Source of the DNA: Amoebophrya sp. A120
Lineage: Eukaryota; Protista; Dinoflagellata
Direction of reading: 5' to 3'
Assembly (NCBI GenBank): GCA_905178155.1
Contig: CAJINV010000025.1
Location: 406,612 to 446,646 of the forward strand
DNA: 40,035 nt
The position numbers were made by a program, and so were the translations under genes. Numbering within the stretch: position 1 is the first letter of the stretch; the number at the start of each line of letters is the position of its first letter. The notes beneath the pieces are model-generated. The model was given only the letters and a program-made list of their open reading frames with translations. It did no database searches and was not told the DNA's origin. Of this stretch, positions 10,990 to 38,985 are shown one piece after another.

Positions 10990-13900
10990 ATGATCATGTT
11001 GCGCATCGGAGGACTCGCCGCGCTTTATTTTTTCAGCGGCCTCTCAACAACGTTTGCGCTCGGGATGAAGTTGTACGGCCAACGCATTTATCAAGTGCAA
11101 ATATGTCTGGGTCTGGAAGATTCTGCGACTTGTCATGCATGTCTGACATGACTCGAGAATCTGTGATGCGTGGGCACGAACCGGCTCTCCTATCTGTCAC
11201 GCAAAAACGCAGTTTCTCATGTGGAATACGCAACACGTACCCGCTCAAAAATTTGTCATGCTTGGCTGCGTATTGCAGTCCGGCTATCATCCAGTGTAGC
11301 ATTAAGTACAAGTTTCCAGACCCAGACATATTTGCAATTCATAGCATTAGCACCTTCAAGGAGCGTACTTTCCTGCAGCAGGAAGAACAAGAAGCACAAG
11401 GTCGGCTACACATGCTATTGCAAGGAAAAATCCCCCCTCCCCATTTTGAACGCGCATCCTGCTGAAAATTTGTGACGCAGATTTGTGACCACAGATCGCG
11501 TCTGTCTTGCAAGAAGGCACATTCAGGCCGTCCGCTCTTTTAGCAACGTTAAATAATAGAACGTTACTATGCAGGCGCTCTGTAGAAATGCTGTAAGCGT
11601 AAGGCCCACAGAGTGCGTAGCCGTCTACCATGCTAGGCGCCTACACCAAAAGACCCTCGCCTAGGCTGGCTTAGGATCTACTGCGTGCCGTCCTTTACTG
11701 CAATAGTACGCATCTGTTGACTTCTTGTGTACTCAAGTCCAGCATCAGAAATTTTGATTTGATATGGGGAGGGGGGATTATTTTTGGTTGTATTACAGGG
11801 ATCTCAACGGTGCTTGTGGATCTCAACGTTGAGACCTCACAGCTCAACGTTGAGAAATATATCTCAACGATCAGCAGTGGTTTAGGGTTTCGGGTTTAGG
11901 ATTTGGGGTTTAGGGTCGTCGGGCAGGGCAGCCGCGGCTGCCCTGCCCGACGATTCTCTCGTCGCCTCCCTGCGCTCTTGTTGCCCGGTACGTTGTGCGC
12001 GGCCCGTTGCCTTGTGTGCCCTGTGTCCCACTATGCGTGGAGCCTTCGCGCGTTTTTCTGAGTATCTATGAGCCCGCTCGCTGGCAGGACCTCTGAGAGG
12101 TTTGCTGCGGGGGCTTGGTGCGCACCTTCACGCCATGCAGTTCTTCTGTGTGCAGACCGTTGAGACCAGTCGTTGAGCTCATCGCGAATCCGTTGAGGCG
12201 TCTCAAAGCGTTGAGGCGCGACCGTTGAGATTCACTCGTTGAGATTCCTGTATAACAACCATTATTTTTCCTTTCGATGCATGCACGAACAGCATCACGA
12301 GTTTCTTGCTGATCCTTCTACTCCTTCTTGCCCAGACCAAGCACCGAGAGTGTTCGTGTATGGCTTTCCGCCCAAGGAGTTACTGAGTCATATGGTGTTC
12401 TCAAACGTTCCGTTCTCAGCTTCTGTTACATGATTTGTCATGCAAAATGACCATGAGCCGCCAAACGATCAAGCTGCTTCGCAAGACAAATTATCGCCGG
12501 GCTAAACAGCATCTAAATTATCCGTGCCAAATTTGTGATGCAAGACTTGCAAGCTTGCCCCTTTCCCTATTGCTGTTTTTGCATCACAAATTCGTGTAAC
12601 AGTTGAGGATGTAACATTTGAGAACTCCATAAGTCACGGGACACGTGACATCGTTTGGCGGGAGGATGCGTACTGCGAAAGAGAATTACCGTCTGGCTCG
12701 GCCGAGGAGCGCGATTGCGTCTTCGGTCCGGAGTTCTCCGTTACGATCGATTCGCCGCCAGCCAACGTGACGCTCCGTGCCACTGACCAGTTTCGAAATG
12801 GCCGCATCTTCCAATCCCGCCTGGTGCGCTCAGCTTGCAGAGTCACAGATCCCACACGCGCCGATGTGTTTTTCGTGCCCATTTGGCGCGAGAATTACAA
12901 AGTGAACCGCACCGAGTGCCCGACGGAAGACGAAGTTTTGGCTGCTCTTCCCTACTTGTCCGACGAAACGGCGAGCAAGCACTTTCTGATGTCTCCGCGT
13001 GTCGGGGGATTGTGGGATGACGTGTGCCCTTTTTGGAATAGCGAGAAGCCGCTGCTCCAGAAAATCCGAAAGATGGCCCTGGAAGACACAGCCTGCGGCA
13101 AGGAGGACCGGCCGGAGCGTTCTATTCCGTATCCGACCCTCGGTGGCGGTTTGAACAGTACGCAACTCGCCCACCTGTTCGCCGTCGCCGATAAAGCGCA
13201 GGAGACCGGCAGGGAATTTCTAGTCATGGCCACTCTGGGGAAACGCGTTGGCATATCAAAAGGAAAAATCCCCCCTCCCCACATCAAAACGAGATTTCTG
13301 ATGCTGGATTTGAGTGCACAAATCAGGTTTGTATTGCAGGAAAGCATTGCAGTCAGATCCCCAGGCTAGGCAGGGGCGTATGCGTCTAGTTGTTCAGCAT
13401 GGCAAGCGGCTCCCCTTTAGGCCCAATAGCATGACAAATCGCTTCCATAGTGTGGCGGAAGCTTCTGCCGTTGTCTTCTTGCAATACAAATGTGATTTGC
13501 GACCTCAAATCAGCAACGCAAATTTTCGAAAACATACCTTTTCGATATGGGGAGGGGGGATTTTTGCTTTTGATATGGCATCTCCTCTGCGCGCGTGCGC
13601 GACGTTTGGAATCAACACTGCCACGACAGCGACCATTGTATTGCGGTGGACCCCACGGTATCAAATGTAAAAATGTCTGGGTCTGGAAGATTCCGAGATT
13701 TGTCATGCAGTTTTTCCAAGCTCCACAAAGTCTGGAATGCAGGGCCTAGCATCACAGGTTCTGCAGCCCCTTGGTGATGCCCATTATGCATGAGAAATGC
13801 CCTCTGAGGATGCCGAGAAATGGGGACCTTTTGCAATTCATGCGAACACAGATTTTTGTATCATCCGCAACACGCATCACAAGTTCGCATTCTTCCAGAC

Positions 13901-15108
13901 CCAGACATTTTTACATTTGATACACGGTGGCAGGCATGCTCCCTGGGTTGGTCCAAGCCATGATGAAGTCCACCTTTTGCTTGCAGCCGGAAGGAGACAC
14001 TCCGTCTCGCAAGGGGATGCTGGACAGCTTGGCGCTGGGATGCATTCCGGTGCTTTCGTCCCGGAAACAGCACACGCTGTGGCGTTGGCATCTGGGAGAC
14101 CACGACTGGGAAGATTTCTCTGTGCTGGCGCCAGATTCCACGCAGGCGGCACACTCAACCACTAGGGGCAATAAACCCACCCAGCCGGGGCAAAACCACC
14201 CAGATACAACCCCGGGGCAAAACGACCACCCAGCCGACGATATCAAATGTAAAAATGTCTAGGTCTGGAAGAATGCAACTTGTGATGCTGCGTCTGCATT
14301 ATCCGAAAATCTGTATTGCATGAACAGCAGAAGAGGTCTGGTTTTGGCCACGGCGAGAGGGCATTTCTCATGCGGTATAGGCATCAGAAAGCCCTGCTCA
14401 CAAGACCTGTGATGCTAGGGCATGCATCGCAGACATCAGTCATGCAAAATGTGCATGACAAACCTTGCATCCTTGCAGACCCAGACATTTTTGCAGTTGA
14501 TAGGCGAGGACGGGGGGCAAAACCACCCAGCCGAAGAGGACGGAAGGCAAGACGAGCAAGACCAATCAACTGTCGGCAAGGGGCCAACATCGCAACGTTC
14601 GTTATCAAATGTAAAAATGTCTGGGTCTGGAAGATTGCCAGGTTTGTCATGCACATTTTGCATGACTCCTGATGTCTGTGATGCATGCCCTAGCATCACA
14701 GATTTTGTGAGGGCTTCCTGATGCCTATACCGCATGACAAATGCTCTTTCCGTGTAGCAAAACTTGGACTCTCTTTGCTGCTCACGCAATACAGATTTTT
14801 TTAGAATCCAAAAGCAGCATGACAAGTTGGATTCTTCCAGACCCAGACATTTTTACATTTGATGTTCGTGGTGCTGTGGCGATGGCGAGAAGAAATCCCC
14901 TCCAGCGGTGGCGCAGACGCTGATGGAAACTGGATCGTCCGGCGTCAACAACATCGTAGAGTTCCTGGAGACCATCAACGCGACCACGATCGCCGAACTG
15001 CGGGCCGGCGTGCGGAGTGCGCGGGAGAAAATCATCACGCACTGGACCGACACCGACTTGAACGACGCAATTACGGTCACGCTGAAAGCCATACAGGATG
15101 GCAAATGA
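10990..15108 (+). CDS. Exostosin-family (GT47) glycosyltransferase with N-terminal signal peptide/anchor, ~537 aa, split by 7 TIR elements. Exons 10990-11088, 11349-11415, 12285-12390, 12637-13253, 13581-13658, 13928-14240, 14508-14602, 14870-15108
   Basis: Joined exons total 1614 nt with no internal stop. They read MIMLRIGGLAALYFFSGLSTTFALG..RVFVYGFPP..TDQF..CRVTDPTRADVFFVP..SIPYP..STFCLQPEGDTPSRKGMLDSLALGCIPV..WEDFSV..NDAITVTL, which are GT47 motifs in the expected order. Confidence 0.92.
11089..11343. mobile_element. Family A TIR element acting as intron
   Basis: TATCAAGTGCAAATATGTCTGGGTCTGGAA...TTCCAGACCCAGACATATTTGCAATTCATA; repeat GCATT. Confidence 0.93.
11416..12279. mobile_element. 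Family B TIR element acting as intron; right TIR split by a nested element
   Basis: TATTGCAAGGAAAAATCCCCCCTCCCCAT...ATGGGGAGGGGGGATTATTTTT[insert]CCTTTCGATG; repeat CATGC. Confidence 0.9.
11786..12260. mobile_element. Nested non-autonomous element with 9-bp TSD (Mutator-like)
   Basis: TSD ATTATTTTT (11777-11785, 12261-12269). TIR GGTTGTATTACAGGGATCTCAACG / CGTTGAGATTCCTGTATAACAACC. Subterminal TCTCAACG/CGTTGAG repeats. Confidence 0.88.
12391..12631. mobile_element. Family E TIR element acting as intron
   Basis: TATGGTGTTCTCAAACGTT...AACATTTGAGAACTCCATA; repeat AGTCA. Confidence 0.9.
13254..13575. mobile_element. Family B TIR element acting as intron
   Basis: TATCAAAAGGAAAAATCCCCCCTCCCCACATC...GATATGGGGAGGGGGGATTTTTGCTTTTGATA; repeat TGGCA. 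Confidence 0.95.
13659..13922. mobile_element. Family A TIR element acting as intron
   Basis: Perfect TIR TATCAAATGTAAAAATGTCTGGGTCTGGAAGA; repeat CACGG. Confidence 0.96.
14241..14502. mobile_element. Family A TIR element acting as intron
   Basis: Family A TIRs; flanks GACGA/GGCGA. Confidence 0.92.
14603..14864. mobile_element. Family A TIR element acting as intron (interior opposite to 14241-14502)
   Basis: Family A TIRs; repeat TTCGT. Confidence 0.93.
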
Positions 15109-15149
15109 AGACGAAGAGGAGAAAATGTTTTAAATGAAAAACACGGCTA

Positions 15150-15406
15150 TATCAAATGCAACTATGTCTGGGTCTGGAAAGAAAGTTGGAACTTGTAATG
15201 CTAGCTTTACATTCCTGGAATATCTGTATTGCATAACCGACAAAAGGAGATTTTTGTCATGCAAAAACGCAGTTTCTCATGACATGCGGGCTGCCTATGA
15301 GAAAGTGCTCCGAAAAGTTGTCATGCTGCTCTGCATTCGGAACTGTTTCCATCATGCACATTTTAGCATCACAAGTTTCCAGACCCAGACATATTTGCAT
15401 TTGATA
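15150..15406. mobile_element. Family A TIR element downstream of the stop codon
   Basis: Family A TIRs; CGGCT on both sides, with one extra A on the left. Confidence 0.88.
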
Positions 15407-15444
15407 CGGCTTTACTGTCTACTACAACCCGTACGCCAGCGGCT

Positions 15445-15777
15445 TATGCTGAGGAAAAATCTCCCCTCCCCATATTGAAAGCGCATCCATCTGAAAACTT
15501 GTGATGCAGATTTGTGACCACAAGTGATCGCGTCTGTCTTGCAAGACGGCAACTTCAGGCTGTCCGGCACGTTATCCAGGCGATTTGTAATGGTGTAGGG
15601 CCTACAGGGCAGCCGTCTACCATCGACTAGGCGCCTATACCAAAAGGCCCCTGCCTAGGCTTGCGATCTGCGTGCAGTGCTCTACTGCAACACAAGTTTG
15701 ATTTGTCTTTGTGTACTCAAATACAGCATCACAAATATCGTTCTCGATATTGGGAGGGGTGATTTTTCCTTTTGATA
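15445..15777. mobile_element. Family B TIR element
   Basis: TATGCTGAGGAAAAATCTCCCCTCCCCATAT...ATATTGGGAGGGGTGATTTTTCCTTTTGATA; repeat CGGCT. Confidence 0.88.
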
Positions 15778-16389
15778 CGGCTCATCTACATCATCCTTGC
15801 GTTGCTGAGGACCTTAAGGCGTTGGATATCTATCACTGTCTGTTGGTTTTACTTATTATCATTGACGTATTTTGAAAAAATTGCTTGTAACAACAAAACT
15901 TCTTCGCTCTACCAGTTCTGTTTTTCTCAAGAAAGAGCACAAAGTGGCTCAGTCTTCTATCTGGTATTTTTATTCATCTTGAAATAGCGCTAGAATGGTC
16001 AGCACACGAGAGAAGAAAACCTTCACCCGGATCATTCCGTGTATCCAATATGAACAAACAACCAAACAGCTTTTCATTTGCATTTTCTTCTATTGATCAT
16101 CATGGTTCGAATTCAATTTTGTATGGTCTTGACCGACCAGCATGTAGTTTTTGCTTTATTAATAATTCGGAACTACTAGCCTGGTCGTCGTTGGGGTCGC
16201 GACCACATTCTACTTTCACTAATTGTAATTTTTGTACTAGTTTCGGTTTATCTTCATTCCGACCGCATGATAGAAGTACACATAAACAAAATGCAAACCT
16301 GTCTATGGAAGCGTCAGGATTGAAATCGTCAAAGTTGAATTTGAAAAAAAAAAAATGCATAAAATGCAACCCACAAAGCGCCTGTCTTG

Positions 16390-16988
16390 CAGAGTAGGCA
16401 AGGGAGGCATATTGCAAGCCTGTTGAGGGGTAGAAATAGAGCTGCTGAAGTAGCATGACAAAAGGCGTCTTCCTTTTACCCAAACAGCATTACAAACTGG
16501 ACTTAGACACCACCAAAACTTGTCATGCGCCATTTCTAAACTGGGCTCCAACTGGCATCCATTTTATGCATGACGAACTATTTCAACTCTGACAAATTTC
16601 AAACCTGACACATCCATATTGTCTGGCTCTGAAAATAAGAAGTTGTGAAAAATTCGTAGAACAGCAAGATGGTTTCTGCTACACGGAGTGAGAGGCATTT
16701 GTCATGCGGATTAGGCATAAGGAACTACAAGCATACCTAATTCATAGAGTGTGACAGACCACGACGACATCAAACTGACCGCTACCAGAAATAAAAGTAG
16801 CCAGTGGCATGATGAGAAATTCATTTTGCAGGGCGTCCATTTTTAGCCTCTACGAAAACAAGATGTGAATGAATACGCATACGCACGAAACTCGGCAAGC
16901 ATTTCCTGCATGACAGAGGTTGTCTGTCTTGCTTGTCTTTCATCAGAGCGTGTACTTCTAAGTGTAACACTTCTTATTTCTCACGATA
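16390..16988. mobile_element. Cluster of eroded A-, B- and D-like element remnants
   Basis: TGTCTGGCTCTGAAA (~16620), A-like interior GGCATTTGTCATGCGGATTAGGCAT, and D-like end GTAACACTTCTTATTTCTCACGATA (16988); no matched pairs. Confidence 0.5.
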
Positions 16989-17815
16989 AAAAAGGTCTCG
17001 ACGTGGTCCACAAATAAGATCATCGTCTGGCTTCTACTCTACCTCCCGCTGCTGTTGTTCAAACAAAGAACTTGCGCCGTTTTATTTCGAAGCTTCACGT
17101 TGTCCACCCGTGTAAGACTTCTCAGAGTAAGTCGAAGTACTCATAATTGCAGCTTTATTCCAGCAAGAGAAACAAGATCTTGAAAAAATGCGTCGATCTT
17201 CTTGTGGCCGCTTTTTTTCCTTTTCTTTACGTTCAGCGAGCAGGTTCGTCATCTTTCAAGGTTTAGTTTTAAATCGAGCACTATACCATAGGGTAGTTTT
17301 TATCGGCCAGCGTTATAATTTCAGATTCGGAAAAATGTACGTGTCTAGCGCGCACATAAGAACTTACTTTTGATCCTAGTATATAAAATTCCTGCCGTGA
17401 AGATCCACACGCCTACTGATGAGAGAAGCTCCTGCTGGCTGCGCTTGCCACAGGAAATTATGACCTTTTGCGGCTTGTGCTCGCAACTAGTAGACCACCT
17501 CCGAGAATAAATACAACTTATCTATCAAGATAGATCAACATGATCTATCGGTAAAAATAAAACTACAATCAGCCTACTTCTTGCAACTAGCTGCGCGGCC
17601 GGCGCTTGCTTTTTGGTAGCGGCAGCCTTATTTTTCTGGCATAGAAGGAGAACAACTCGCACTCGCTAGAAGTGACGATCGAGGACCACCTAGTGCCGAG
17701 AATATTCAATAGCACGTGATGTTGTCGGACGGGAAGTGGAACGTATGTGAACAGCAGAGGCCTCTATCTCAAAAAGTACTAGTACTACCTTGATTTATTG
17801 TCCAGAGAAAAAAAA

Positions 17816-20800
17816 ATGGCCGCCGCCAAAGCGAATGCGAACATGGCCCGACTACACAAGCACAGCGCGACTCTTCTCGGGGACCGCCTGTACGCAGCGG
17901 TGCGGATATGAAATGTAAAAATGTCTGGGTCTGGAAGAATGCAACATTTGTGATGCAGGTTTTCCATGACCCATGAGGCCGCGCATGCAGGACCTAGCAT
18001 GACAGATTCTGCGCGATCTCTCTCATGCCTTTCCTGCATGAGAAACTCCCTCCCGACTTGGTCAAAACTGGACGACTTTTGGTAATCATGCAACACAGAT
18101 TTTTGCATGCTTCAGATTTAGCATGACAAGTTGCATTCTTCCAGACCCAGACATTTTTACTATTGATAGCGGAGTGGCGACGGCAAATCCACGACATGCT
18201 CCTCCTCCTTACCTATGAACTGCAAAAGTGTCCTGCTGCTCGTATAAATGCATGACAAATCCCCTCAGCATGAGAAATAAAATTTGTAATGCGGATTTAC
18301 ATTGGGAAAAAAATTTGTAATGCACGACTGCAATACGAGTACTGTCACTGTGCGATACTTTTGCACAGGATATTACCCCGCCGATTTTTCAAGAAGCTGA
18401 AAAGCGGGACGAAACAGCTTTTCCTAAATTCTCGGTCACCGGCTGCGGCAGCGCGAGTAGGCGCGATATCTCCTCCCGACAGCGACGATCGGTTGCCACC
18501 GACACTGTACCGGGTGAAGAATATTGCATTTTCCGAGAAGCCGGGGAAAACCAGCAGGGAGGCGAGTGCGGCCGTGGGTAAAAATAGAGAGCAGGGTCCA
18601 GGAGCAAATTCCTATACCACCGATAGCACACCCACAGGTGATCCTTCCCCGCTATCGACTGTAAAAATGTCTGGGTCTGGAAGGGCCAAACTTGTGCTGC
18701 TGTATTTGGATGCTAAAAAAACCTGTATTGCATGACCAGCAAGAGGATTCAAATTTGGCTACGCGGAGACGGCATTTGTCTTTGTCATGCTGGATGCGCA
18801 TAGATAAGCGCTCAAAAAATCTGTGATGCTATGGCATACATCACAGACATCATGACTCATGAAAAATGTGCATGATAAAGTTGTGCTGTTCCAGACCCAG
18901 ACATTTTTGCATTTGATACCCGCCCGACGGAGCCAACATTTGTTCGGCACCGGTACTATTTTCCATCCCTGTCTACGGGCGGAACAAAAACACGCTGCTT
19001 CCGAGCACGCCCGTCGCGGTAGGAAATTGCAAATCTCTCTGAGTCTGGAAGAATGCAGAAGTTAGTCATACTGCTTTTGCATGACCGAGGACGGCTTGTA
19101 TGCAGGAGCAGGCGGCAAAATTTTTTTGTTTTCTCGACAGGGCATCTCATTAGCATTCCTGCATGAGAAATTCCCGTATTTGGGTGACAAAAGGTCGTCG
19201 TCGTGGATGAGAGATTTTTGTCTGTGCAACTGCTTTAGCTGGCCAGGCATGACAGATTTTTGTGATGTCTCTTAAAATGCGCGTCTTCACAAGTTTGAGT
19301 ATTCGCGCTTCAGACCTCCCAGATGACAGATTTGCAATGCATCGGCGTTCCTGAAACCCAACCAGGTGGTGCAGGTGTTGCCGCACGCGCTAAGGATCTG
19401 TGATGAGGAGCTAACGGAGGACAATTTGAGGAACTACAACTCGGGCATCGCCGGTTTGGAAAATGCAAAGTGGAAGCAGTTTTGGCTGGACACGCACCGA
19501 GGAGCAGGAGCCGCAGCCGCTTCCTCCTCTCCGTCCAGCTCGTCCTCTGTGGCGCCTGTAAATGTAATGAAGGACCACGGGGGCCAGCAAATGAGTTGTG
19601 AACAAGGAGGGAAAAAAAACCTCCCTGTGCAGACAGGCCACGAACCCGAAGTGGTAGAAGCAAGGACGAGCGAAACATCGTCAAGACGGGAAGGTGCAGA
19701 AACGCTTTCTCACCCCGCCCTCACTCCACCGTCTCCGTGGATCCCGGTTCGCATCGCGCCGGACGCCATGGAGGTGCTTACCATGCCGAACACGGTCGGC
19801 GGCATGACACTATCACGAGGAAAAACTCCCCCTCCCCATAATCTTCAAACGGAAAGTTTTCAGTACTGCTCTGTGGCGAGAGATCAGCTTTGTCCACGCA
19901 AGAAGGCAAGCAAAGATAAAGATAAAGTAATTTGCTCGCTTGCTTTTCTTGAGCGTACAGGGCAGGCGCAGCCTTACGGCGACGGACAAGCGCGGCGCGG
20001 ACGCGCCGCCGCTTCGCAGTGATCGAGAGGCGGCGAGGCCGGTGCGCTTCGATGGTCGTGCGTGCATTCCTGCAATCTTCGTCGCGGGGCAAAATTTTAC
20101 CCGTGCAGGCCGGCATTTTGCTGGCGGTTTTTTTGCCCGCGCTTTTTTGCCGTCGTGATGTTTTTAGCGAGGCTAATCTGGCGACCCTGCTTTCGCTGTG
20201 CCTTAGTAGCAAACCTACTTGAGGAGCCTACTCGCAGGGCCGTGGGAGCGAACCCACCCGAGCGCTCCACTTGCAGCGCCTTCAGAGCGAACCCGGCCGA
20301 GCAAGCCAAAAACGCAACAACAACGCAACAACAACTCCACAACAACTCCACAACAACTCCACAACAACTCGACAGCAACTCGACAGCAACTCGACAACAA
20401 CGCAACAACAACTCGACAACAACGCAACAACTACGCAACAACTACGCAACAACAACGCAACAACAACGCAACAACAACGCAACAACAACGCAACAACAAC
20501 GCAACAACAACGCAACAACAACCCAACAACAACCCAACAACATACAACTCAGCCCGTAGCCAAAAAAAAAGCCTGGCAAGGGCGGGAAAGCGTGCGCGCT
20601 CTCCTTTTTTTATCCACCCAAAAAAGTAAAAGGAGAGATATTCCGGGCGGTCCAACAAAAGCAGAGATATTCGGGGCGGTCCGGCAGAAGTGGAGACATT
20701 CGGAGCGGTCAAGCAGAAGGAGAGATATTCGGGGTGGTCAGGCGAAAGCGGAGATATTCGGAGCGGTCAGGCAAAAGTAGAGATATTCGCAGCGGCCGAA

Positions 20801-29800: not shown

Positions 29801-30607
29801 TCAGATTTAGCATGACAAGTTGCATCCTTCCAGACCCAGACACTTTTACATTTGATACGAGAAGCTGCGCCACCAAAGCAGCGGGTTTAACTGGCGCAAT
29901 ATCCAGTGCAAATCATATGTCCAGGTCTGGAAAGTTGGAACTTGTCATGCTAGCTGTACATCCCTGGGTGGAAATCTGTATTGCATACCCAACACAAGTC
30001 GCAGCCTCTCTTTTCATGCGACAAAACGTAGTTTCTCGTGCGGACCACTGCACTACGAGAAAGCGTTTTAGCAAGTTGTCATGCTGGGGCGCAATCGGAC
30101 GTGTTTCCATCATCTACATTGATTTTAGTATCACAAGTTCTCTCCAGAGGACCCAGACATGCTTGCAATTGATACGCAACGCTTTGGTGCCTGTCATCGG
30201 ATTCAACTTCGCCAATCTGCTCTTCGTCTACCCCTTTGCCGTCAATGGGACCTATCCATTGCAAATATATTTATCTGGGTTGGGAAAAGTGGACCGTGTG
30301 TTGCATGTCTTGCATTCTTGAAAACTCTGTGTTGCACAGCCAGCAAAGTCGCTACTTTTTCGTCACGCAAGAACCACGCAGTGCGTCATGCGTGCTACGC
30401 ATCAGACGGCGTGAACTGAAGTCGTCATGCTTGGCTGCACTTGAAAGCGCCAGTGACTTATCCATACTTCAGCATCACAAATTTCCAGAGGATCCAAACA
30501 TATTTGCAATGCATAGGGTCTACTTCTTTGCCATGCCGGCAGTGACGGCCGGGTTCGTTACCGGCAGTTTGGGACTGATCCTTTGGCACGACTTGTTTTA
30601 CCTGTGA
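17816..30607 (+). CDS. Hypothetical protein ~722 aa with hydrophobic (predicted TM) C-terminal segments, split by 15 TIR elements. Exons 17816-17906, 18174-18213, 18378-18652, 18924-19019, 19349-19810, 26789-26925, 27195-27230, 27492-27872, 28122-28218, 28481-28551, 28819-29027, 29298-29304, 29516-29585, 29863-29899, 30180-30252, 30521-30607
   Basis: Each element+5-nt deletion keeps one open frame (2169 nt total): MAAAKANANMARLH...FFGRIGLFFTFCYSTVAYL...NALVPVIGFNFANLLFVYPFAVNGTYFFAMPAVTAGFVTGSLGLILWHDLFYL*. The join across 19811-26788 is the weakest, so this could be two genes. Confidence 0.72.
17907..18168. mobile_element. Family A TIR element acting as intron
   Basis: Family A TIRs; repeat GCGGA. 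Confidence 0.92.
18214..18372. mobile_element. Family C TIR element acting as intron
   Basis: TATGAACTGCAAAAGTGTC...GATACTTTTGCACAGGATA; repeat TTACC. Confidence 0.88.
18653..18918. mobile_element. Family A TIR element acting as intron
   Basis: Family A TIRs; repeat CCCGC. Confidence 0.92.
19020..19343. mobile_element. Degenerate family A element acting as intron
   Basis: TAGGAAATTGCAAATCTCTCTGAGTCTGGAAGA...CAGAC..CCAGA..TTTGCAATGCATC; flanks CGCGG/GGCGT; frame restored. Confidence 0.65.
20311..20550. repeat. CAA-derived 11-bp minisatellite (CAACAACAACG and variants)
   Basis: Directly visible; produces spurious TTQQQRNNNA ORFs in all frames. Confidence 0.92.
20621..26671. repeat. ~6-kb satellite array: 29-bp monomer AAAAGTAGAGATATTCGGGGCGGTCAGGC in a 6-monomer 178/184-bp higher-order repeat
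   Basis: Five 29-bp monomers plus one 33-bp CGCAGCGGCCGAACAAGT variant per unit. The GTCTCC marker recurs every 184 bp from 24481 to 25769. Confidence 0.97.
26926..27189. mobile_element. Family A TIR element acting as intron
   Basis: Family A TIRs; repeat TGCAG. Confidence 0.93.
27231..27486. mobile_element. Family A TIR element acting as intron
   Basis: Family A TIRs; repeat TCACG. Confidence 0.93.
27873..28116. mobile_element. Family D-like element acting as intron
   Basis: TATGGAAAGAAAAAAATTCGTCGC...GTGACAAATTTTGTTTCGTGCATA; repeat TTGCG. Confidence 0.8.
28219..28475. mobile_element. Family A TIR element acting as intron
   Basis: Family A TIRs; repeat GGAGC. Confidence 0.92.
28552..28813. 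mobile_element. Family A TIR element acting as intron
   Basis: Family A TIRs; flanks CGTTT/CTTTC (the duplicate copy near 39834 has CGTTT). Confidence 0.9.
29028..29292. mobile_element. Highly degenerate family A element acting as intron
   Basis: TATCCCTCGCAAACATA..TCTGGATCTGAGAGA...TTTGCAATGCATA; 265 bp (family length); flanks GAGCG/GAACA; frame restored. Confidence 0.62.
29305..29510. mobile_element. Family D element acting as intron
   Basis: TATGGAGAGAAAAAAGTTTGTCACAGTCAC...GTGATCGTGGCGAACTTTTTTCTTTTCATA; repeat AGGTC. Confidence 0.87.
29586..29857. mobile_element. Family A TIR element acting as intron
   Basis: Family A TIRs; repeat CGAGA. Confidence 0.92.
29900..30174. mobile_element. 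Family A TIR element acting as intron
   Basis: Diverged family A TIRs; repeat CGCAA. Confidence 0.87.
30253..30515. mobile_element. Family A TIR element acting as intron
   Basis: TATCCATTGCAAATAT...ATATTTGCAATGCATA; flanks GGACC/GGGTC. Confidence 0.82.
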
Positions 30608-31673: not shown

Positions 31674-34600
31674 ATGAGTGCTGTGGAATCGACAGTACCC
31701 GCCAACAAGAGCTGCAAAATTAAGCCGCTCCCGCAAGGTTTGCGTCGCACGAATGCGAAAAAGCCGCCGCCGCCCGCTGCAAAGCATAACCTGTCGCTCC
31801 ACTATCCTGTGCAAAAGTATCGCACTCGTAGTAATTGCAGTCATGCATTACCAATCTCGTTCCCAAGGCAAATCAGCATGACAAATTGCATTTGTCATGC
31901 TGAGGGAATTTGTTATGCAATTTATACTAGTACGATACTTTTGCAGTTCATATCCACGTGACTCTGCCAACTACTACGAGGAGGAACATCACTGCCCCCG
32001 CTGCACAAAATCAACAACCGGCGACTTCGGTTGTCGTGCCGGCCGCGGCTGAAACTCAAACACAAACTACAGCTGTTGTGAACAATAATAATCAAACTAC
32101 GACTACTTCTTCTACTACTACTGCAACGACGAGTACGGCTTTCTCGAAGGCGACATCCAAGGCTGCCGGAGGGCCACCAAGTCTTGGAACGGTAGCTGCA
32201 CCCGCCCAACCCGAAGTAGAACTACCCGCCGAGCCCATTCCCGCCGTCTCCAAGGCCCGGGGCCCGCCTCCGCCGGGAGATGAAAACAGTACTAAACCGT
32301 CTACTTCCGACGGAGCAGCTGCACTAGGTGTAGACAACGACGACCTGCAGGCGCTACCCAAGGCGGTGCCGAAGGCGGGCTATCAACTGTAAATATCGCT
32401 CTGGGTCTGGAAGATTAAAACTTATCATGCTCAATCTGAATGATGCAAAAATCTGTGATATTGCGTGAGTACCAAAAGCCGTCCGCTTTTGACCAAATTG
32501 AGAGGGAGTTCCTCATGCAGGAAACGCATGATAGAGACCGCAAAGAATCTGTCATGCTAGGTCTCGCATTGCAGACCTCATGGCTCATGCAAAACGTGCA
32601 TGGCAAGTCTCAGAATCTTCCAGACTTAGACATATTTGCACTGCATACGGGCGGTTTGGTCGCGAAGCTCGCCGCGGTGGGCGTGAACGTGGAGCAAGCT
32701 GTATGCAAGAGAAAAAAGAAAAACTGTGTAAGCGTGACTTTGTGTTGCACACGCACGCAAAGCAATTCTCACTTGCTATGCTCAACATGCATTTTTACAG
32801 GCTAAAGTAGTCTCATATGTGTTTACTTTTATTTCATCGCGCACTATAATTTCTTGCGCACTAGACAGGCTTTCCATTACCTTTTTATTTCACTCGGGGT
32901 CCCTTTTGACCCCGAATAGATTTGAAAAGCCGTCCATGCCGTGCGGGTTCGAAAGGGGGTGCCTGGGTTCAAATTTTTATGGTTTTTGCTTGACAAACTC
33001 AATTATCTCAAGCTTTTCTTATTTCGCACCTGTTTCCGTCACCTCCTTAATTCATTCGGGGTCTCTTTTGACCCCGAATAGATTTGGTCCGCCCATACCG
33101 TGCGGGTTCGAAAGGGAATGCCTGGCTTCAAGTTTTTAGGGTTTTTGCTTGACAAACTCAATTATCTCAAGCTTTTCTTATTCCGCACCTGTTTCCGTCA
33201 CCTTCTTATTTAATTCGGGGTCTCTTTTGACCCCGAATAGATTTAAGAATCTGTCCATACCGTGCGGGTTCGAAAGGGAATGCCTGGCTTCAAGTTTTTA
33301 GGGTTTTTGCTTGACAAACTCAATTATCTCAAGCTTTTCTTATTCCGCACCTGTTTCCGTCACCTTCTTATTTAATTCGGGGTCTCTTTTGACCCCGAAT
33401 AGATTTAAGAATCTGTCCATACCGTGCGGGTTCGAAAGGGAATGCCTGGCTTCAAGTTTTTAGGGTTTTTGCTTGACAAACTCAATTATCTCAAGCTTTT
33501 CTTATTCCGCACCTGTTTCCGTCACCTTCTTATTTAATTCGGGGTCTCTTTTGACCCCGAATAGATTTAAGAATCTGTCCATACCGTGCGGGTTCGAAAG
33601 GGAATGCCTGGCTTCAAGTTTTTAGGGTTTTTGCTTGACAAACTCAATTATCTCAAGCTTTTCTTATTCCGCACCTGTTTCCGTCACCTTCTTATTTAAT
33701 TCGGGGTCTCTTTTGACCCCGAATAGATTTAAGAATCTGTCCATACCGTGCGGGTTCGAAAGGGAATGCCTGGCTTCAAGTTTTTAGGGTTTTTGCTTGA
33801 CAAACTCAATTATCTCAAGCTTTTCTTATTCCGCACCTGTTTCCGTCACCTTCTTATTTAATTCGGGGTCTCTTTTGACCCCGAATAGATTTAAGAATCT
33901 GTCCATACCGTGCGGGTTCGAAAGGGAATGCCTGGCTTCAAGTTTTTATGGTTTTTGCTTGACAAACTCAATTATCTCAAGCTTTTCTTATTCCGCACCT
34001 GTTTCCGTCACCTTCTTATTTCATTCGGGGTCTCTTTTGACCCCGAATAGATTTAAGAGTCTGTCCATACCGTGCGGGTTCGAAAGGGGGTCCCTGGGTT
34101 CACGTTTTTATGAGTTTTGCTTGACAAACTCAATTTTCTGAGGCTTTTCTTAGTCCGCATCTGTTTCCGTCACCTTCTTATTTCATTCGGGGTCCCTTTT
34201 GACCCCGAATAGATTTGGTCCGCCCATACCGTGCGGCTTCAAAAAGGGATGTCTGGGCTCAAGTTTTTGTAGTTTTTGCTTGACAAACTCAATTATCTCA
34301 AGCTTTTCTTATTCCGCCCCTGTTTCCTTCCCCTTCCTATTCCATTCGGGGTCCATTTTGACCCCGAGTAGATCTGAAAATCCCTCCATACCGTGCGGGT
34401 TCGAAACGGGATGCCTGGGCTCAAGTTTTTATAGTTTTTGCTTGACAAGCTCAATCTTCTGAAGCTTTTCTTCTTCCGCACCTGTTTCCGTCCCCTTCCT
34501 ATTTAATTCGGGGTCCATTTTGACCCCGAGTAGATCTCGAAATCCCTCCATACTGTGCGGGTTCGAAAAGGGATGTCTGGGCTCAAGTTTTTGTAGTTTT

Positions 34601-37600
34601 TGCTTGACAAACTCAATTATCTCAAGCTTTTGTTATTCCGCCCCTGTTTCCGTCGCCTTCTTATTGCGCTCGGGGTCTTTTGTGACCCCGAATAGATTTG
34701 AAAAGCCCACCACGCCGTGCGGGTTCGAAAGGGGATGTCTGGATTTGAGTTTTCGTGATAGTTTTTAGTATTGCTATAGTATACTACGCTAACACAATTT
34801 CATTCCTGGATGAGCTAACGAGGTAGGGACCGTGCAGCAGCAGCTCGGAGATGGCTCGTCTGGCGCGGGGGCCACCGGACGACAAGGACAAGATCCATCT
34901 GCGCAGCAGGAAGCGGACCGTAATACCAGCGCAGCAGCCGATATCACGGGAAAAAAGTGTTACAGTTACACATTTGTTGGAGTTTCTGCATCGCAAAGTT
35001 GCTCGACATGGCCAAGAAAACCTGTGATGCGCAGACTACAAGGGAAAACACGAGTGAAATGAGGCTGGCAACCATTTCCTGCATGACAAAGGTTGTCTGT
35101 CTTGCTGGTCTTCCATCAGAGTGTGTAACTGTAACATTTTTTTCGCAGGATAGCCGAGGACAACCTGGCGTTGTTTCGGAATATCACCAGACAGGTCACC
35201 ATATCCTGTGCAAAAGTATCGCACTCGTATAAATGCAAGTCATGCATTACAAATCTTGTTCCCAAGGCAAATCTGCATTACAAATTTTATTGGGTAAAAA
35301 GGACAAATCCCAAGAAGACTAGCAAAATCTCAAGAAGAAATGGACAAATCTCAAGAAGAAATGGGCAAATCTTAGGGTTTGGGTTTGGGGTCTAGGGTTT
35401 GGGGTTTCTGGTCGTCGGCCAGGGCAGCCGCCGCCGGCCGGCCGGCCGGCGGCGGCTGCCCTGGCCGACGACTCTCTCTTCTCGTTTTTGGAAGGTGGCG
35501 GCCCCGCGCCCTGCCCGCCTTCGTGTTTGTTCTGTCGCTTCCTTGGGGTTCTCCTGGTTGGCGCTGGCCAGCTCCTTGGCCGGCGGGCCTCGGGATTGGG
35601 GCACACAGCGCAGCCGCGCAGAACTTGGCGGCTTGGTCCCTCACCCGGGTCCCCCTCGCAGGGAGACCGCGGACGGGCCGCGGGGTGTCCTTGTGTATTT
35701 TTCCAGGCCAGGATGCCGTCGTGCATCATGTTATGCATGATGGAGTGTTGCTTGCAAAAAAACACAGTAGATTCAGAAGAACCGAATGCCCGCGAATAGC
35801 TTTGACGTGGCCCCGCACACCGTCGTGCATAACGTTCTCGCTCGCCAAAACATCTCCTTCTCTCCGCCCTCTGCTTTCCATCTGCTTTTCGCCTTCTCTC
35901 TGCCGTCTTCTTTCGATCTGCTTTTCGCCTTTTCTTTGCCCTCTTCCTCGATTCGATTCCAACGTAGAATAATGCGTTTCCACAGGCAGGAAGTTTTCAG
36001 TGAAAACTTCCTGTCTGTGAACTATACCATGGTGTATAAAGTTCTCCCTGAAAAATCCGTAACCATTCTTCTTGAGATTTTTAACAAGTCAAGCAATTTG
36101 AAAATTAAGCATTTTCTTTTTGGGGTGGGTTCTTCTTGAGCTTTTCTTCTTGAGATTTGTCCACTTTAACCAATTTTATTTCTCATGCTGAGGAAATTTG
36201 TCATGCATTTATACGAGTGCGATACTTTTGCAGTCCATACACCAGACGCGCCACGTCGGGGCTATGACCTGCTCAAACGTTACAACCTCAAACGTTACTC
36301 AATAGGATTTGGGTTTTGTATTGCATGACGAGCATGACAGACTCGGACAGCATTCCATTTTCTGCAATACAAATTTCGCCAAATTGTAGTGCGGATTGGG
36401 GCGACTCCAGAACTTGTCATGCGCATCAATCCTACGAGAGTCGGCTACTACGTAATGCACTTCTTGCAGCACACATTCCAGATTCTATGATAACCGATTT
36501 GAGATTGTAACACCTGAGCAGGTTATAGGGGCTGTACAAGCATGAGGAGTGGCTGGCCCGGCTATCAAATGTAAAAGTGTCTGGGTCTGGAGGATTCTGA
36601 AACTTGTCATGCATATTTTGCATGAGTCGTGATGTCTGTGATGCATGCCCTGGCATCACAGATTTTTTCTGGGCTTCTTGATCTTGATGCCTAGTCCGCA
36701 TGACAAATGCCCTCTCTCCGAAGCAAAAAATACACTCATTTTGCTGCTCATGCAATGCAGGTTTCTTTGGAATCCAAATGCAGCATCACAAGTTGCATTT
36801 TTCCAGACCCAGACACTTTTGCACTCGATACCGGCGGCATGACGACAAGGTCCGACGGATCGAGGAAGAAAAGCGCCAGGCACGTATCCTGTGCAAAAGT
36901 ATCGTAAAAGACTTCTACGTAGAAATCGCATCACAAATAGAAGCGCAGCATGACAGCGATAGAACTTGTAATTCTGATTTAATACCTCGGGAAGAAGATT
37001 AACATTTGCAGCCACGCATGTTCGCGATGTATTATTGGAACGAGCTGTACGATAGTACTTTTGCAATGCATAGCCCGACGCGCGGAACGGTGGTACAATA
37101 ACGATCGTAACAGAGAGGGCCGCGCCAGAAGTCGGCGAAACGACTCGCGAGGACGCAGGAGCTACGGGCGGGGGAATAAAAAAGATGACCGGGACGACCA
37201 CCGGGACAAAAATGTGAGCAGGAGCAGGGTACGGCGATTGTCCAGTCGCGATCGTCGGGACTCACGAGGCGGAAAAGGACGGGACAGGTATACTGAAGAT
37301 AAAGCAAGAGAACTTTGTTTTTCTTCTTATAAAAACCGTATATTTATTGTCATGCCTAAAAGTAGAAAGAGAAAAAGAACCAGTCATGCGTGATCTCAAC
37401 TACTTCTACACTTAGAATTTGTACTACTTATCACAGAAGCAGCTACCGCGATACAACGGCCCGAACTACTGGTGCAAACTCCCGCCGTCGTGAGGAAGAT
37501 GACAGCAGGGATGACAACTACCACAACGACAACAAAAACCGCTGCTCCCGGAGTCGTGGACGTGGTGGTCGTGGTGGCGGTGTGAATGGCAATGACAACG

Positions 37601-38794
37601 GTAAAAAAAAGGATAAAAAGCGAAACTACTCCGAGGACGAAAGCGAGAAGAATTACTCTACCAGCAAGAAGAACAAGAAACCTGCTCCCTCTTCGTCCAT
37701 ATGCATTGCAAAAATGTCTGCGTCTGGAAGATTGGTGCGGTTTGTCATGCTTGTCTGGCATGACCAAAAAATTTGTGATGCGTGTCAACGAAGAGACCCT
37801 TTTGCCTGTCATGCAAAAACGCAGTTTGTCATGCGAGAAACGCAATACAAGGAAGTGCAGATATTTCTCATGCTTGGCTGTGCATTACAGAGCATTCACT
37901 ATTCCCAACGCAGCATTACAAGTTTCCAGACCCAGACACTTTTGCATTTGATAGTCCACCGACGAGAGCAAGAAAAGAAGTGGCACTGGTGCTCCCGCGG
38001 ACAGGTAGAAGGATCTTAAGGAAAACTGTTTCTGGGTTTTATTTAACTCTGTCATGCAGAAATTGAACGTAGACAACGGCCCAATTCTAAGCATAATGTC
38101 GCTTGTCAACATCCGATGACTAGAGAATAACAAAAACCCTAGGAAAAAACTCGTGCACTATCAAATCGCTCCTGTGTACAAATACCTGTGCGTCCTGGCA
38201 AACACTTTTGCAGTCATGATCTAATGCTGAGAGCGCTTGAAGCGCTATAATCCGCCGAAAAAAAGAACAAAACTCTGGAAATTTCAACTTCTCTTCTGGG
38301 TATTAAACTAACAGGTCGACCAAAAAGCACAAGAAGGAAAAAGTAAGCAGGACATCAACATCTGACAGCCGGGAACAGAGTAACAGCAAGCGGAAGGGCC
38401 GTGGGGGAGACAAGAAGCAGAGTTTATTGTGAGGAAACGTTTTCGTGATCCCTCCTCCGCTTTTTGAAAAGGTGGTCTAGTACAACTTGTGAAAATTTGT
38501 GATGCTGATTTATTATCTGTGGCCACAAAGCGCACGCCTGTCCGTCTTGCACGAGGTTCCTGAGTTGTAAACCGCAAACATCCAGCATACACAAGTTTGC
38601 GTTTGAGTACGGGGAAGTAGATGGGGGATCAGCATTTTTGATTTTGATACAGCAGCAAGCAGAAAAACGACAGTCGAGGCCGAGATGACAGTCGAGGACG
38701 GGACGACAGTCGAGGCCGAGACGACAGTCGAGGCCGAGATGACAGTCGAGGACGAGATGACAGTCGAGGACGGGACGACAGTCGTGGGAGATAA
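31674..38794 (+). CDS. Hypothetical low-complexity protein ~544 aa (T/P/A-rich N-terminal half, R/S/D/K-rich C-terminal half ending in DSRGRD repeats). Exons 31674-31802, 31958-32380, 32653-32701, 34818-34941, 35158-35201, 36245-36262, 36533-36562, 36836-36884, 37078-37287, 37437-37699, 37959-38004, 38315-38424, 38655-38794
   Basis: 1635 nt open after removing 10 TIR elements (+5 nt each) and two GT-AG introns. Start codon uncertain, as the frame is open back to ~31596. Confidence 0.75.
31803..31952. mobile_element. Family C TIR element acting as intron
   Basis: TATCCTGTGCAAAAGTATCGCACTCGTA...TACTAGTACGATACTTTTGCAGTTCATA; repeat TCCAC. Confidence 0.92.
32381..32647. mobile_element. Family A TIR element acting as intron
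   Basis: Family A TIRs; repeat CGGGC. Confidence 0.9.
32702..34812. mobile_element. Family D-like element expanded to 2.1 kb by a satellite, acting as intron
   Basis: TATGCAAGAGAAAAAAG...ACACAATTTCATTCCTGGATG; flanks AGCTG/AGCTA; removal gives in-frame EQA-DEVGTVQQQ. Confidence 0.72.
32865..34770. repeat. 162-bp (159-bp variant) tandem satellite, ~12 copies, each with hairpin ATTCGGGGTC-N6-GACCCCGAAT
   Basis: GACAAACTC marker at 32992, 33151, 33313, 33475, 33637, 33799, 33961, 34123, 34282, 34444 (variant) and 34606. Confidence 0.96.
34942..35152. mobile_element. Family D TIR element acting as intron
   Basis: TATCACGGGAAAAAAGTGTTACAGTTACA...TGTAACTGTAACATTTTTTTCGCAGGATA; repeat GCCGA. Confidence 0.93.
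35202..36239. mobile_element. Family C TIR element acting as intron, hosting a nested element
   Basis: TATCCTGTGCAAAAGTATCGCACTCGTATAAATGCA...TGCATTTATACGAGTGCGATACTTTTGCAGTCCATA; repeat CACCA. Confidence 0.92.
35292..36171. mobile_element. Nested non-autonomous element with 9-bp TSD (Mutator-like)
   Basis: TSD AATTTTATT (35283-35291, 36172-36180). TIR GGGTAAAAAGGACAAATCCCAAGAAGA / TCTTCTTGAGATTTGTCCACTTTAACC. Subterminal TCTCAAGAAGA repeats. Confidence 0.88.
36263..36527. mobile_element. Family E TIR element acting as intron
   Basis: TATGACCTGCTCAAACGTTACAACCTCAAA...TTTGAGATTGTAACACCTGAGCAGGTTATA; repeat GGGGC. Confidence 0.9.
36563..36830. mobile_element. Family A TIR element acting as intron
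   Basis: Family A TIRs; repeat CCGGC. Confidence 0.93.
36885..37072. mobile_element. Family C TIR element acting as intron
   Basis: TATCCTGTGCAAAAGTATCG...TACTTTTGCAATGCATA; flanks GCACG/GCCCG. Confidence 0.83.
37288..37436 (+). other. Putative canonical GT-AG intron
   Basis: ACAG|GTATAC...TCACAG|A; AT-rich; joins two RS-rich ORF pieces in frame. Confidence 0.65.
37700..37953. mobile_element. Family A TIR element acting as intron
   Basis: Family A TIRs; repeat GTCCA. Confidence 0.92.
38005..38314 (+). other. Putative canonical GT-AG intron
   Basis: ACAG|GTAGAA...CTAACAG|G; removes an in-frame TAG and continues K/R/S-rich coding. Confidence 0.62.
38425..38649. mobile_element. Degenerate family B element acting as intron
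   Basis: TATTGTGAGGAAA..CCCTCCTCC...GGGGGATCAGCATTTTTGATTTTGATA with B-type interior; flanks GAGTT/CAGCA; the +5 rule restores the frame. Confidence 0.65.
38669..38791 (+). repeat. 18-bp coding tandem repeat, ~7 copies, encoding DSRGRD
   Basis: GAC AGT CG. GG. (C/A)G. GA(C/T); all variation between copies is synonymous in this frame. Confidence 0.9.
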
Positions 38795-38817: not shown

Positions 38818-38985
38818 TATCCTGTGCAAAGTATCGTACTCGTGAAAGGTAAGAATTGCAATGATGCATGGCCAAACTTTTTTCCATATGCAATTCACAA
38901 TGGCAAAGAACGGAAGAACTCCATTTGTCATGCTGTAGCAAAAATGCAATTCCTATTAGCACCTACGACACTTTTGCCATCCATA
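38818..38985. mobile_element. Family C element, degenerate, just downstream of the stop codon
   Basis: TATCCTGTGCAAAGTATCGTACTCG...TACGACACTTTTGCCATCCATA; no matching flank repeat. Confidence 0.65.

Follow-up and report, generated by a model that had tools for sequence, protein, structure and literature searches.

Non-GT-AG introners in three genes of Amoebophrya sp. A120: anatomy, removal with five adjoining nucleotides, and a possible rule for the cuts

How are insertions that interrupt reading frames, and that lack GT and AG at their borders, taken out of the message? The question is raised by a 40,035-nt stretch of DNA from Amoebophrya sp. A120 (contig CAJINV010000025.1; hereafter the window). 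The 32 inverted-repeat elements that a first-pass annotation of the bare sequence had placed in three genes are all present, 7 in 10990-15108, 15 in 17816-30607 and 10 in 31674-38794 (Table 1). The taxon, Amoebophrya strain A120, is confirmed by exon 12638-13252, which matches protein P0001 (source name Amoebophrya sp. A120) at 100%, and the reconstruction of the whole of gene 1 places the elements in the A120 genome. They are almost certainly A120 introners. The phenomenon is already known, as the annotation had allowed, and the window re-discovers a result of 2021.

Table 1. Genes, introners and related features of the window (repeat: matching positions of the 5-nt direct repeat)
Position	Strand	Feature	Repeat	Basis or remark
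10990..15108	+	Gene 1, exostosin GT47 glycosyltransferase, 537 aa, 7 introners		PF03016, E 3e-22; spliced translation = P0001
11089..11343	.	Introner A, reverse	5/5	
11416..12279	.	Introner B	5/5	Nested element breaks right arm ~19 nt from its end
11786..12260	.	Nested element, GG..CC ends, 9-bp target duplication		Inside introner 11416..12279
12391..12631	.	Introner D	5/5	RNA-like contig starts at 12632
13254..13575	.	Introner B	5/5	RNA-like contig piece stops at 13248
13659..13922	.	Introner A, forward	5/5	RNA-like contig starts at 13923
14241..14502	.	Introner A, reverse	4/5	Left copy kept at repeat position 2 in P0001
14603..14864	.	Introner A, forward (reference for orientation)	5/5	
15150..15406	.	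Type A element past gene 1 stop		One extra base separates repeat and TAT
15445..15777	.	Type B element downstream of gene 1	5/5	
16304..16618	.	Element outside ORFs	4/5	RNA-like contig joins 16299 to 16620 (element + 5)
17816..30607	+	Gene 2, 722-aa ORF, 15 introners		ORF logic only
17907..18168	.	Introner A, forward	5/5	
18214..18372	.	Introner C	5/5	
18653..18918	.	Introner A, reverse	5/5	
19020..19343	.	Decayed introner, A-like	3/5	
19811..26783	.	Introner B; tandem arrays (11-bp and 29-bp units) enlarge it to 6973 nt	1/5	+5 keeps frame
26926..27189	.	Introner A, forward	5/5	
27231..27486	.	Introner A, forward	5/5	
27873..28116	.	Introner E	5/5	
28219..28475	.	Introner A, forward	5/5	Slides to GA-AG
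28552..28813	.	Introner A, reverse	3/5	
29028..29292	.	Decayed introner, A-like	3/5	7-nt net exon next
29305..29510	.	Introner E	5/5	Sole element sliding to GT-AG
29586..29857	.	Introner A, forward	5/5	
29900..30174	.	Introner A, weakly reverse	5/5	
30253..30515	.	Introner A, reverse	3/5	GA-AG reachable by sliding; the site that says most about the cut register
31674..38794	+	Gene 3, 544-aa low-complexity protein, Arg/Ser/Asp-rich tail, 10 introners, 2 GT-AG introns		ORF logic only
31803..31952	.	Introner C	5/5	
32381..32647	.	Introner A, reverse	5/5	
32702..34812	.	Introner E-like, enlarged to 2111 nt by 162-bp tandem array	4/5	
34942..35152	.	Introner E	5/5	
35202..36239	.	Introner C	5/5	Nested element inside
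35292..36171	.	Nested element, GG..CC ends, 9-bp target duplication		Related to 11786-12260: 69 nt at 84%, E 1e-16
36263..36527	.	Introner D	5/5	
36563..36830	.	Introner A, forward	5/5	
36885..37072	.	Introner C	4/5	
37288..37436	+	Canonical GT-AG intron of gene 3		
37700..37953	.	Introner A, reverse	5/5	
38005..38314	+	Canonical GT-AG intron of gene 3		
38425..38649	.	Decayed introner, B-like	2/5	+5 keeps frame
38818..38985	.	Type C element beyond gene 3 stop		Repeat shifted by one base

The elements share a simple anatomy, which agrees with the termini TAT(C/G)...(G/C)ATA and the mostly perfect or near-perfect 5-bp repeats described at first. Left ends begin with TAT in 31 of the 32 and with TAG in the remaining one; right ends mirror them, with ATG at three and other alterations at two more. 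Left-arm positions 11, 12 and 13 are A in 29/32, 30/32 and 32/32 elements. The 5-nt direct repeat is perfect at 23/32 and matches at 4/5 positions in three, 3/5 in four, 2/5 in one and 1/5 in one, and perfect repeats of 3, 4 or 6-9 nt were found at none of the 32. The combination of TAT..ATA/ATG, a perfect repeat and inverted arms gives 24 hits in 21,095 nt, whereas 50 first-order shuffles average 0.08 and never exceed 1. The 28 uninterrupted copies measure 150-324 nt, with arms of 14-30 nt, and nested DNA enlarges the other four to 864, 1038, 2111 and 6973 nt (range over all 32, 150 to 6973 nt). Of five clustering cuts applied to the ends of 38 elements, the loosest returns the proposed five families plus a singleton, and tighter ones give 8-12 groups. 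Summed depth over the elements in a run of DNA-like contigs (X1) reaches 1e5, compared with ~50 for unique DNA; they are repeated in the genome as families. Being short, with terminal inverted repeats (TIRs), a fixed-length 5-bp duplication of variable sequence and no coding capacity, they have the properties of MITEs and are likely non-autonomous DNA transposons. The nested element at 11786..12260 is, by its features, one that we take to be Mutator-like.

Much of this is in print, and the earlier suggestion that the families and rules might be new is not supported. In the part of Farhat et al. (2021; PMC7789003) that was compared, A120 introner ends consist of TAT, seven looser bases and then at least three A, as do those of the window; direct repeats of 3-5 nt lie at exon-intron borders (5 bp in the Fig. 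S19 legend), 66,565 A120 introns are validated by RNA-seq against genomic DNA, and no cognate autonomous transposase is found in A120. In the part compared of Gozashti et al. (2025; PMC12130899), dataset sd07 records '5-bp TSD, TA/TA termini' for family 38, which is listed as Ginger-like yet said to be without Ginger termini; most families there are of the TIR DNA class, with lengths and TIR sizes compatible with the window elements. Within these portions no feature separates the window elements from published A120 introners, which share the organism, the TAT + 7 nt + AAA inverted ends, the 3-5-nt direct repeats, a mean length of ~240 nt and the lack of GT-AG. Two end motifs from the window gave no match in 12 of 14 published supplement files. 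About 65% of A120 introns are noncanonical.

Removal of each element together with 5 nt opens ORFs of 537, 722 and 544 aa in genes 1, 2 and 3, the last of which also needs two GT-AG introns. The statement that this cut keeps the frame everywhere stands, including at 9/9 sites with decayed repeats, but frame alone also allows +2 and +8, and at the final one or two sites in each gene the length of the ORF is uninformative. For gene 1, cutting at the seven sites yields a protein identical to public A120 P0001, an annotation built by transcript mapping and not from a proteome. The paralogs P0002 and P0003 align without gaps over the 13659 junction. Assembled contigs of a second run (X5), which we guess to be RNA-like, have zero depth in bins 10600-10920, 17020-17661 and 19909-20200, where X1 depth is 38-57; X1 contigs run into elements. 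One full joint, linking 16299 with 16620, is present in X5 record 14; three further records (9, 10 and 11) break off at 12632, 13248 and 13923, with the contig letters beyond left unaligned; these are the left-most joint positions under +5, not under +2. The contigs, likely RNA, lack four element copies and exactly five bases with each. At site 13254 all three paralogs are each one residue longer than P0001, and +2 would supply the residue; the X5 contig end at 13248 favours +5 despite this. The intervals 13254-13580 and 13659-13927, named earlier as those that an RT-PCR product should lack, are correct. GT-AG-free removal is seen at gene 1 and at element 16304 only (P0001; X5 joints), and for gene 1 the proposal of precise removal without standard signals is borne out.

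The signal lies in the symmetric ends, since copies of one family are lost whichever way they point: of the 16 type A copies in coding sequence, 8 point one way and 8 the other (one of them weakly), both orientations occur in the same gene, and both are absent from P0001. Element 11416 has just ~16 paired terminal bases left, yet it too is absent from P0001; ~16 terminal bases are enough for removal, and the +5 spacing outlives repeat decay. Sliding the junctions over six registers reaches GT-AG at 29305-29510, a pair that had not turned up in the junctions first tried, and at none of the other 31; GA-AG is reached at 2/32, and 29/32 elements offer no GT-AG, GC-AG, GA-AG or AT-AC pair in any register. 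The set as a whole does not have the GT, GC or GA with AG that marks canonical U2 or TSD-co-opting introns. Half of the repeats (16/32) are without either G that could create GT or AG, and no particular base is needed within the 5 nt. The cut register itself is barely constrained: at 14241 at least two left-repeat bases remain in P0001, and the C at 16299 remains in X5, which makes one such base or more if the transcript is from the + strand. Published A120 family tables, with ~27% GT and ~27% AG ends, fit one rule combined with aligner sliding onto the element's own T and A, and therefore cannot fix the register.

Very probably, the cuts are defined by the element ends and measured from them. 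We propose that the element and one repeat copy would be spliced from the pre-mRNA, with a symmetric end signal of ~14 nt, TAT-S-N-A-N-TG-Y-AAAA, at each end; the partner end would be chosen by pairing of the two arms, and distance, 5 nt in total outside the arms, would set the cuts rather than flanking sequence. More speculatively, the intron may start one base before TAT and end four bases after ATA, which would place U and A at +2 and +3, like a canonical donor minus the +1 G; on this exact register we lean slightly towards doubt. Equally speculatively, the invariant A of ATA may be the branch point, with a ruler setting the 3' cut. Spliceosomal catalysis is slightly favoured, and a modified spliceosome that cuts at measured distances from symmetric ends has about even chances. 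In published work, A120 has U2, U4, U5, U6 and nearly all spliceosomal proteins, U1 snRNA not having been found, and in the sister strain A25 each of the top nine noncanonical types begins with TT, while their 3' ends vary. Tunicates, as far as the source was compared, indicate that a spliceosome can adapt to noncanonical introns. Against a spliceosome, we infer that a 30-bp stem reaching TAT would hide the donor from snRNAs.

The main rival to a modified spliceosome, which we consider a real prospect of distinctly less than even chances, is a Euglena-like nuclease-ligase that would obey the same cis rule, recognising the end of the arm duplex, cutting at fixed distances outside it and releasing the element, possibly as a circle. 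Orientation independence follows from it directly, and terminal stems are predicted in 24/28 short elements. The nonconventional introns of Euglena, for which non-spliceosomal factors are favoured by their authors (PMC12501133; review PMC11282704), likewise have a probable MITE origin, paired ends, coexisting GT-AG introns and direct repeats that make junctions slidable, and in their signature, 5'-N3CDG-/-CH'GN5-6|R, fixed spacers of free sequence likewise separate a short paired motif from the cuts. However, Euglena is an unrelated lineage, and the window elements have TAT/ATA and 5 nt in total in place of CDG/CH'G with N3 and N5-6 spacers; in Euglena pairing has been shown genetically and circles are reported, whereas the A120 stems are predicted. 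The arms give no sign of selection for RNA pairing, with 43 G-U against 46 A-C mismatches; position 4 pairs in 17/33 elements (17.0 expected by chance), positions 4-7 are paired in 70/144 cells, and 4/28 elements are predicted to have no stem. The idea of machinery that reads the TIR stem is supported for the symmetric ends, which act in both orientations, and stays hypothetical for the stem as a stem. Literature searches found no such enzyme for Amoebophrya.

Another reading accepts removal in gene 1 but takes genes 2 and 3 to be silent in part or split, chiefly at the elements of 7 kb and 2 kb; some of the 32 would then not be introns. We hold it improbable. The 7-kb element, whose repeat matches at 1/5 positions and whose right end is worn, may separate two genes within what is here called gene 2; no public protein matches the exons of gene 2 or of gene 3, the 722-aa ORF has no known family, and X5 depth over gene 2 exons is ~1-5. 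Yet the 722-aa and 544-aa frames need the correct phase at 15 and 10 sites, most single-site phase changes truncate them, and X5 record 15 covers 19501-19738 with zero differences.

Still less probable, and largely refuted for gene 1, is an ordinary spliceosome that takes GT and AG from the target duplication or from nearby cryptic sites. The three elements that slide to GT-AG or GA-AG and the published GT and AG ends speak for it, but the latter mix fits sliding, the other 29 elements reach no such pair, and both P0001 and the four X5 junctions have +5 removal. The TSD-co-opting introners of algae and Symbiodinium (PMC9860276, PMC11282704) resemble those of A120 in being MITE-like, with TIR and TSD, and in leaving mRNA length unchanged after splicing; they carry one canonical site and obtain the other from the TSD, whereas 31/32 A120 elements cannot reach GT-AG. 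The genome of Fritillaria borealis (PMC13326754; review PMC11282704), in the parts compared, likewise carries non-GT-AG introns of transposon origin throughout, which a spliceosome with duplicated U2AF handles; they keep preferred AG-AC and AG-AT ends, whereas A120 junction bases are free.

Ciliate-type programmed DNA excision in some life stage, with RNA copied from clean templates, is barely credible, even though the TA-like ends and the precise loss of a single repeat copy are reminiscent of DNA excision and one DNA-like contig with 14 differences (X1 record 3) leaves the window at 13248. A paralog is the best reading of that contig, X1 contigs that differ at 0-1 positions cross element borders at depth 38-48, and the comparison of RNA-seq with genomic DNA, in the part of PMC7789003 considered, argues against it.

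Returning to end-defined, measured cuts, we speculate that all A120 introners may follow one hidden rule, masked in print by aligner sliding within the 5-bp duplication: a symmetric 14-nt end signal in either orientation, the fixed register of one base before TAT and four after ATA, and any junction bases. This is a generalization that we would sooner doubt than defend. Splice motifs are called highly variable in the portions of PMC7789003 and PMC12130899 compared, whereas one rule fits the window; orientation independence, a ~16-nt minimal end and spacing kept across decayed repeats do not appear in those portions. If the rule were true, splicing would need no particular sequence at either splice site and would be convergent with the ruler code of Euglena, and short exons between neighbouring elements should back-splice into circles. 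Decayed-repeat sites would then fix the register from existing RNA-seq, with 30253 and 29028 together pinning it, and the question of how noncanonical A120 introns are removed is now cheap to test. Machinery able to take out whatever a symmetric 14-nt tag encloses would account for transposons having become harmless in this genome. One-base offsets of the repeat occur at two elements (15150 and 38818), both outside coding sequence.

In the three + strand reading frames of the window, 32 elements with TAT..ATA inverted ends interrupt the coding sequence, as the first-pass annotation had claimed, and six further elements lie outside these frames. They came to light in a blind scan that looked for inverted arms bordered by repeats, and decayed and swollen elements were recovered additionally through reading-frame work. 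In 21,095 nt there are 24 occurrences of the pattern, whereas 50 shuffles gave 0.08 on average. Both arms share the end profile TAT-S-N-A-N-TG-Y-AAAA; at position 4, 60 of 64 arms have C or G, yet this position pairs between arms at chance level. When the 38 elements are clustered by their ends, the loosest of five cuts gives groups of 19, 6, 5, 5 and 2 and one singleton. An Rfam search returned no match.

A perfect 5-nt direct repeat flanks 23 of the 32 elements, in line with the earlier description, and the other nine repeats are decayed; perfect repeats of 3, 4 or 6-9 nt flank none of the 32. The repeats show no base preference beyond G+C richness, 16 of 32 lack both of the Gs that would help to make GT or AG, and the phase given by removal of the element plus 5 nt (+5) is kept at all nine sites with decayed repeats. 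Therefore, the repeat is a target duplication and not a signal. Because the phase is kept at these decayed sites, and because the two elements with a one-base repeat offset are both outside coding sequence, the cuts would be measured from the element ends. We take a Transib or RAG-like origin to be a candidate from the 5-bp duplication; the termini differ.

Genes reconstructed on the + strand after removal of each element plus 5 nt
Gene	Position	Strand	Product	Elements	Other introns
Gene 1	10990-15108	+	537 aa	7	
Gene 2	17816-30607	+	722 aa	15	
Gene 3	31674-38794	+	544 aa	10	two GT-AG introns

Keeping one element, or shifting out of phase, truncates the open reading frame at most sites; at the last one or two sites of each gene neither does. 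Removal with 2 or 8 nt (+2, +8) also preserves the frame, so the frame fixes the removal rule only modulo 3, and the earlier statement that +5 is frame-preserving at every site is correct without being exclusive. With six registers (exact cut positions inside the repeat) scanned, GT-AG is reachable in one of 32 elements and GA-AG in two more, which narrows the claim that sliding yields no GT-AG pair to 31 elements. Gene 1 encodes an exostosin GT47 protein. Its largest exon matches the public protein P0001, labelled Amoebophrya sp. A120, at 100%, and with the seven sites removed the whole product is identical to P0001, which identifies the taxon; three paralogs (69-74%) carry the same label. 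Searches of public proteins gave nothing for gene 2 besides a 41% low-complexity match and no match for gene 3, and Pfam gave none above cut-off for four exons of these two genes. Evidence at the junctions themselves covers gene 1 and the element at 16304; in genes 2 and 3 it is the frame that argues for removal.

Among the public sequencing runs matched to the window, X1 has a depth of 38-57 over intergenic stretches and contigs that extend into elements, and thus behaves as DNA. X5, taken as RNA by guess and carrying no record as RNA, has zero depth in four bins that are intergenic or non-exonic. In record 14 of this run, 16299 is connected with 16620, omitting 315 + 5 nt. Records 9, 10 and 11 break off at 12632, 13248 and 13923 (176, 38 and 70 letters unmatched), the left-most joint positions expected from +5 removal; these ends fit +5 because unspliced contigs would enter the element and +2 would shift the ends. 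P0001 is an annotation derived from transcript mapping, and is therefore not independent of the RNA evidence. In the alignment, the paralogs cross the 13659 junction ungapped, but at 13254 all three have one residue more than P0001, which counts against +5. For gene 1 and the element at 16304, the proposal of precise removal during expression is supported by P0001 and by the X5 joint and ends, with the extra paralog residue at 13254 against it. A single X5 contig is located on gene 2, and the raw RNA runs X13 and X14 are uninformative on splicing (90 and 3 partial reads, every one of them on elements and none on exons).

Over 12973-13248, a DNA-like X1 contig (record 3) matches the window apart from 14 differences and 15 gap letters; its match breaks off exactly at the repeat preceding element 13254, and it may come from a paralog whose site is empty. 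The AT-rich stretch 15890-16919 is transcribed and spliced (X5 record 14) and has no clean open reading frame; it probably belongs to gene 1 as a long 3' UTR, or else represents a noncoding RNA of either strand.

Published splice-site tables can be re-read under the same rule. In eight large A120 families (8,410 introns), the accessible tables give nearly the same mix of ends, with GT 0.27, GC 0.05, GA 0.05 and AT 0.17 at 5' ends and AG 0.27 and AC 0.20 at 3' ends (Gozashti et al., 2025; PMC12130899). Our sliding model combines TAT..ATA ends and the 5-bp repeat with an aligner that moves each junction to where it looks most like GT-AG; the scoring is of BLAT type, and the use of BLAT is documented. 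Over four trial base compositions, sliding fitted with rms 0.022-0.058, +2 removal with 0.051-0.076 and fixed registers with 0.10-0.13. Uniform composition fitted best and the window's repeat composition more weakly (0.054-0.058). The uniform model has six of the nine types of Table S4 among its top types, with an identical top three (Farhat et al., 2021; PMC7789003). Since one rule plus sliding fits the tables best, the published diversity of splice motifs is, on this model, probably an alignment effect. Given the poorer fit of fixed registers, reading the register from these tables was rejected. So was +2 as a general rule: P0001 and four positions in X5 agree with +5, and the table fit of +2 is worse than that of sliding in all four compositions.

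The removal signal is likely located in the element ends. Copies of end type A lie in the + strand genes eight in one orientation and eight in the opposite one (one weakly), and the gene 1 product lacks copies of both orientations. Element 11416-12279, whose right arm is split by a nested element to leave about 16 paired terminal bases, is still missing from P0001. The cut register has a lower bound only: at least two left-copy bases are kept at 14241 (by comparison with P0001), and at least one at 16304, provided that the transcript is + strand. Of 28 short elements, 24 have a predicted stem, and in only 14 is the sense strand more stable than its complement. G-U mismatches number 43 versus 46 A-C (p = 0.83), and selection for RNA pairing was rejected on these counts. 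The earlier suggestion of non-standard, stem-reading machinery retains an end-located signal; the arms may be read as a duplex, but the G-U count and the chance pairing at position 4 give no indication of it. The conserved end features could equally be explained as transposase signals.

As most spliceosome parts are present in A120, we prefer removal by a modified spliceosome, to which we give roughly even chances. An intron beginning one base before TAT would have U at +2 and A at +3, like a canonical donor. In the accessible data for the sister strain A25, the nine top noncanonical types all begin with TT, with free 3' ends (PMC7789003). According to the accessible text of the same paper, neither U1 snRNA nor a transposase was found in A120 (Farhat et al., 2021; PMC7789003). 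A non-spliceosomal removal system, like that proposed for Euglena, is a credible but lesser possibility. Nonconventional introns there work alike, but the window elements fail the Euglena signature as described in the accessible text (PMC12501133). A literature search, with subscription papers, figures and two supplement files outside its scope, returned no paper resolving mechanism, register or orientation independence in A120.

Since every testable defining feature is present, the window elements are members of the published A120 introner class. The accessible text of Farhat et al. (2021; PMC7789003) reports 65% of validated A120 introns as noncanonical and 29,850 introners in 1,954 families, with 3-5 nt direct repeats and ends of TAT, seven looser bases and at least three A, the same as our profile. 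In Gozashti et al. (2025; PMC12130899), 58 A120 families are given; the 38 rows examined are mostly of the TIR DNA class, and the entry for family 38 reads '5-bp TSD, TA/TA Termini'. From the accessible descriptions, TSD-co-opting algal introners (PMC9860276) and Fritillaria introns (PMC13326754) are different. The observation is thus real, correctly described and already known; end motif, repeat length and noncanonical removal are in print across the two A120 papers (PMC7789003; PMC12130899), against the idea that families and rules might be new. Its value lies in a sharpened, testable removal rule rather than in discovery.

The motif GCATSAC, counted on both strands, is shared by all introner families, with 97 copies in 9.8 kb of element DNA against three in 5.6 kb of exons; the two canonical introns of gene 3 hold another three. 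It may mark introns or serve as a transposase-binding repeat. Those introns (37288-37436 and 38005-38314) may be old introners. More introner-type elements, some decayed, lie outside the three genes or within a canonical intron (4382-4590, 4651-4974, about 10453-10590, 38159-38221). An upstream array at 1200-3630 has roughly 200-bp GC-rich repeats, with no link to introners seen.

Two related nested elements (11786-12260 and 35292-36171) have GG..CC termini, 9-bp target duplications, telomere-like repeats and a GC-rich hairpin; we take them to be Mutator-like. In the window, both lie within introners and none in exons, which argues that introners serve as safe landing sites. Tandem arrays also lie entirely within single introners: 11-bp and 29-bp units at 20263-26660, which lengthen their introner to 6973 nt, and a 162-bp unit at 32870-34750, which lengthens its own to 2111 nt. 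Frame evidence alone suggests that as much as 7 kb of cargo is tolerated. The stretch 39789-40035 is a 96% duplicate of 28769-29015 (element end and following gene 2 exon). The repeat copy in this duplicate agrees fully with the left repeat 28547-28551, while the right copy in gene 2 itself differs at two bases, each in a third codon position. Two introners lie just 12 nt apart at 29293-29304, with a net exon of 7 nt between them; correct pairing of their ends has to be very local.
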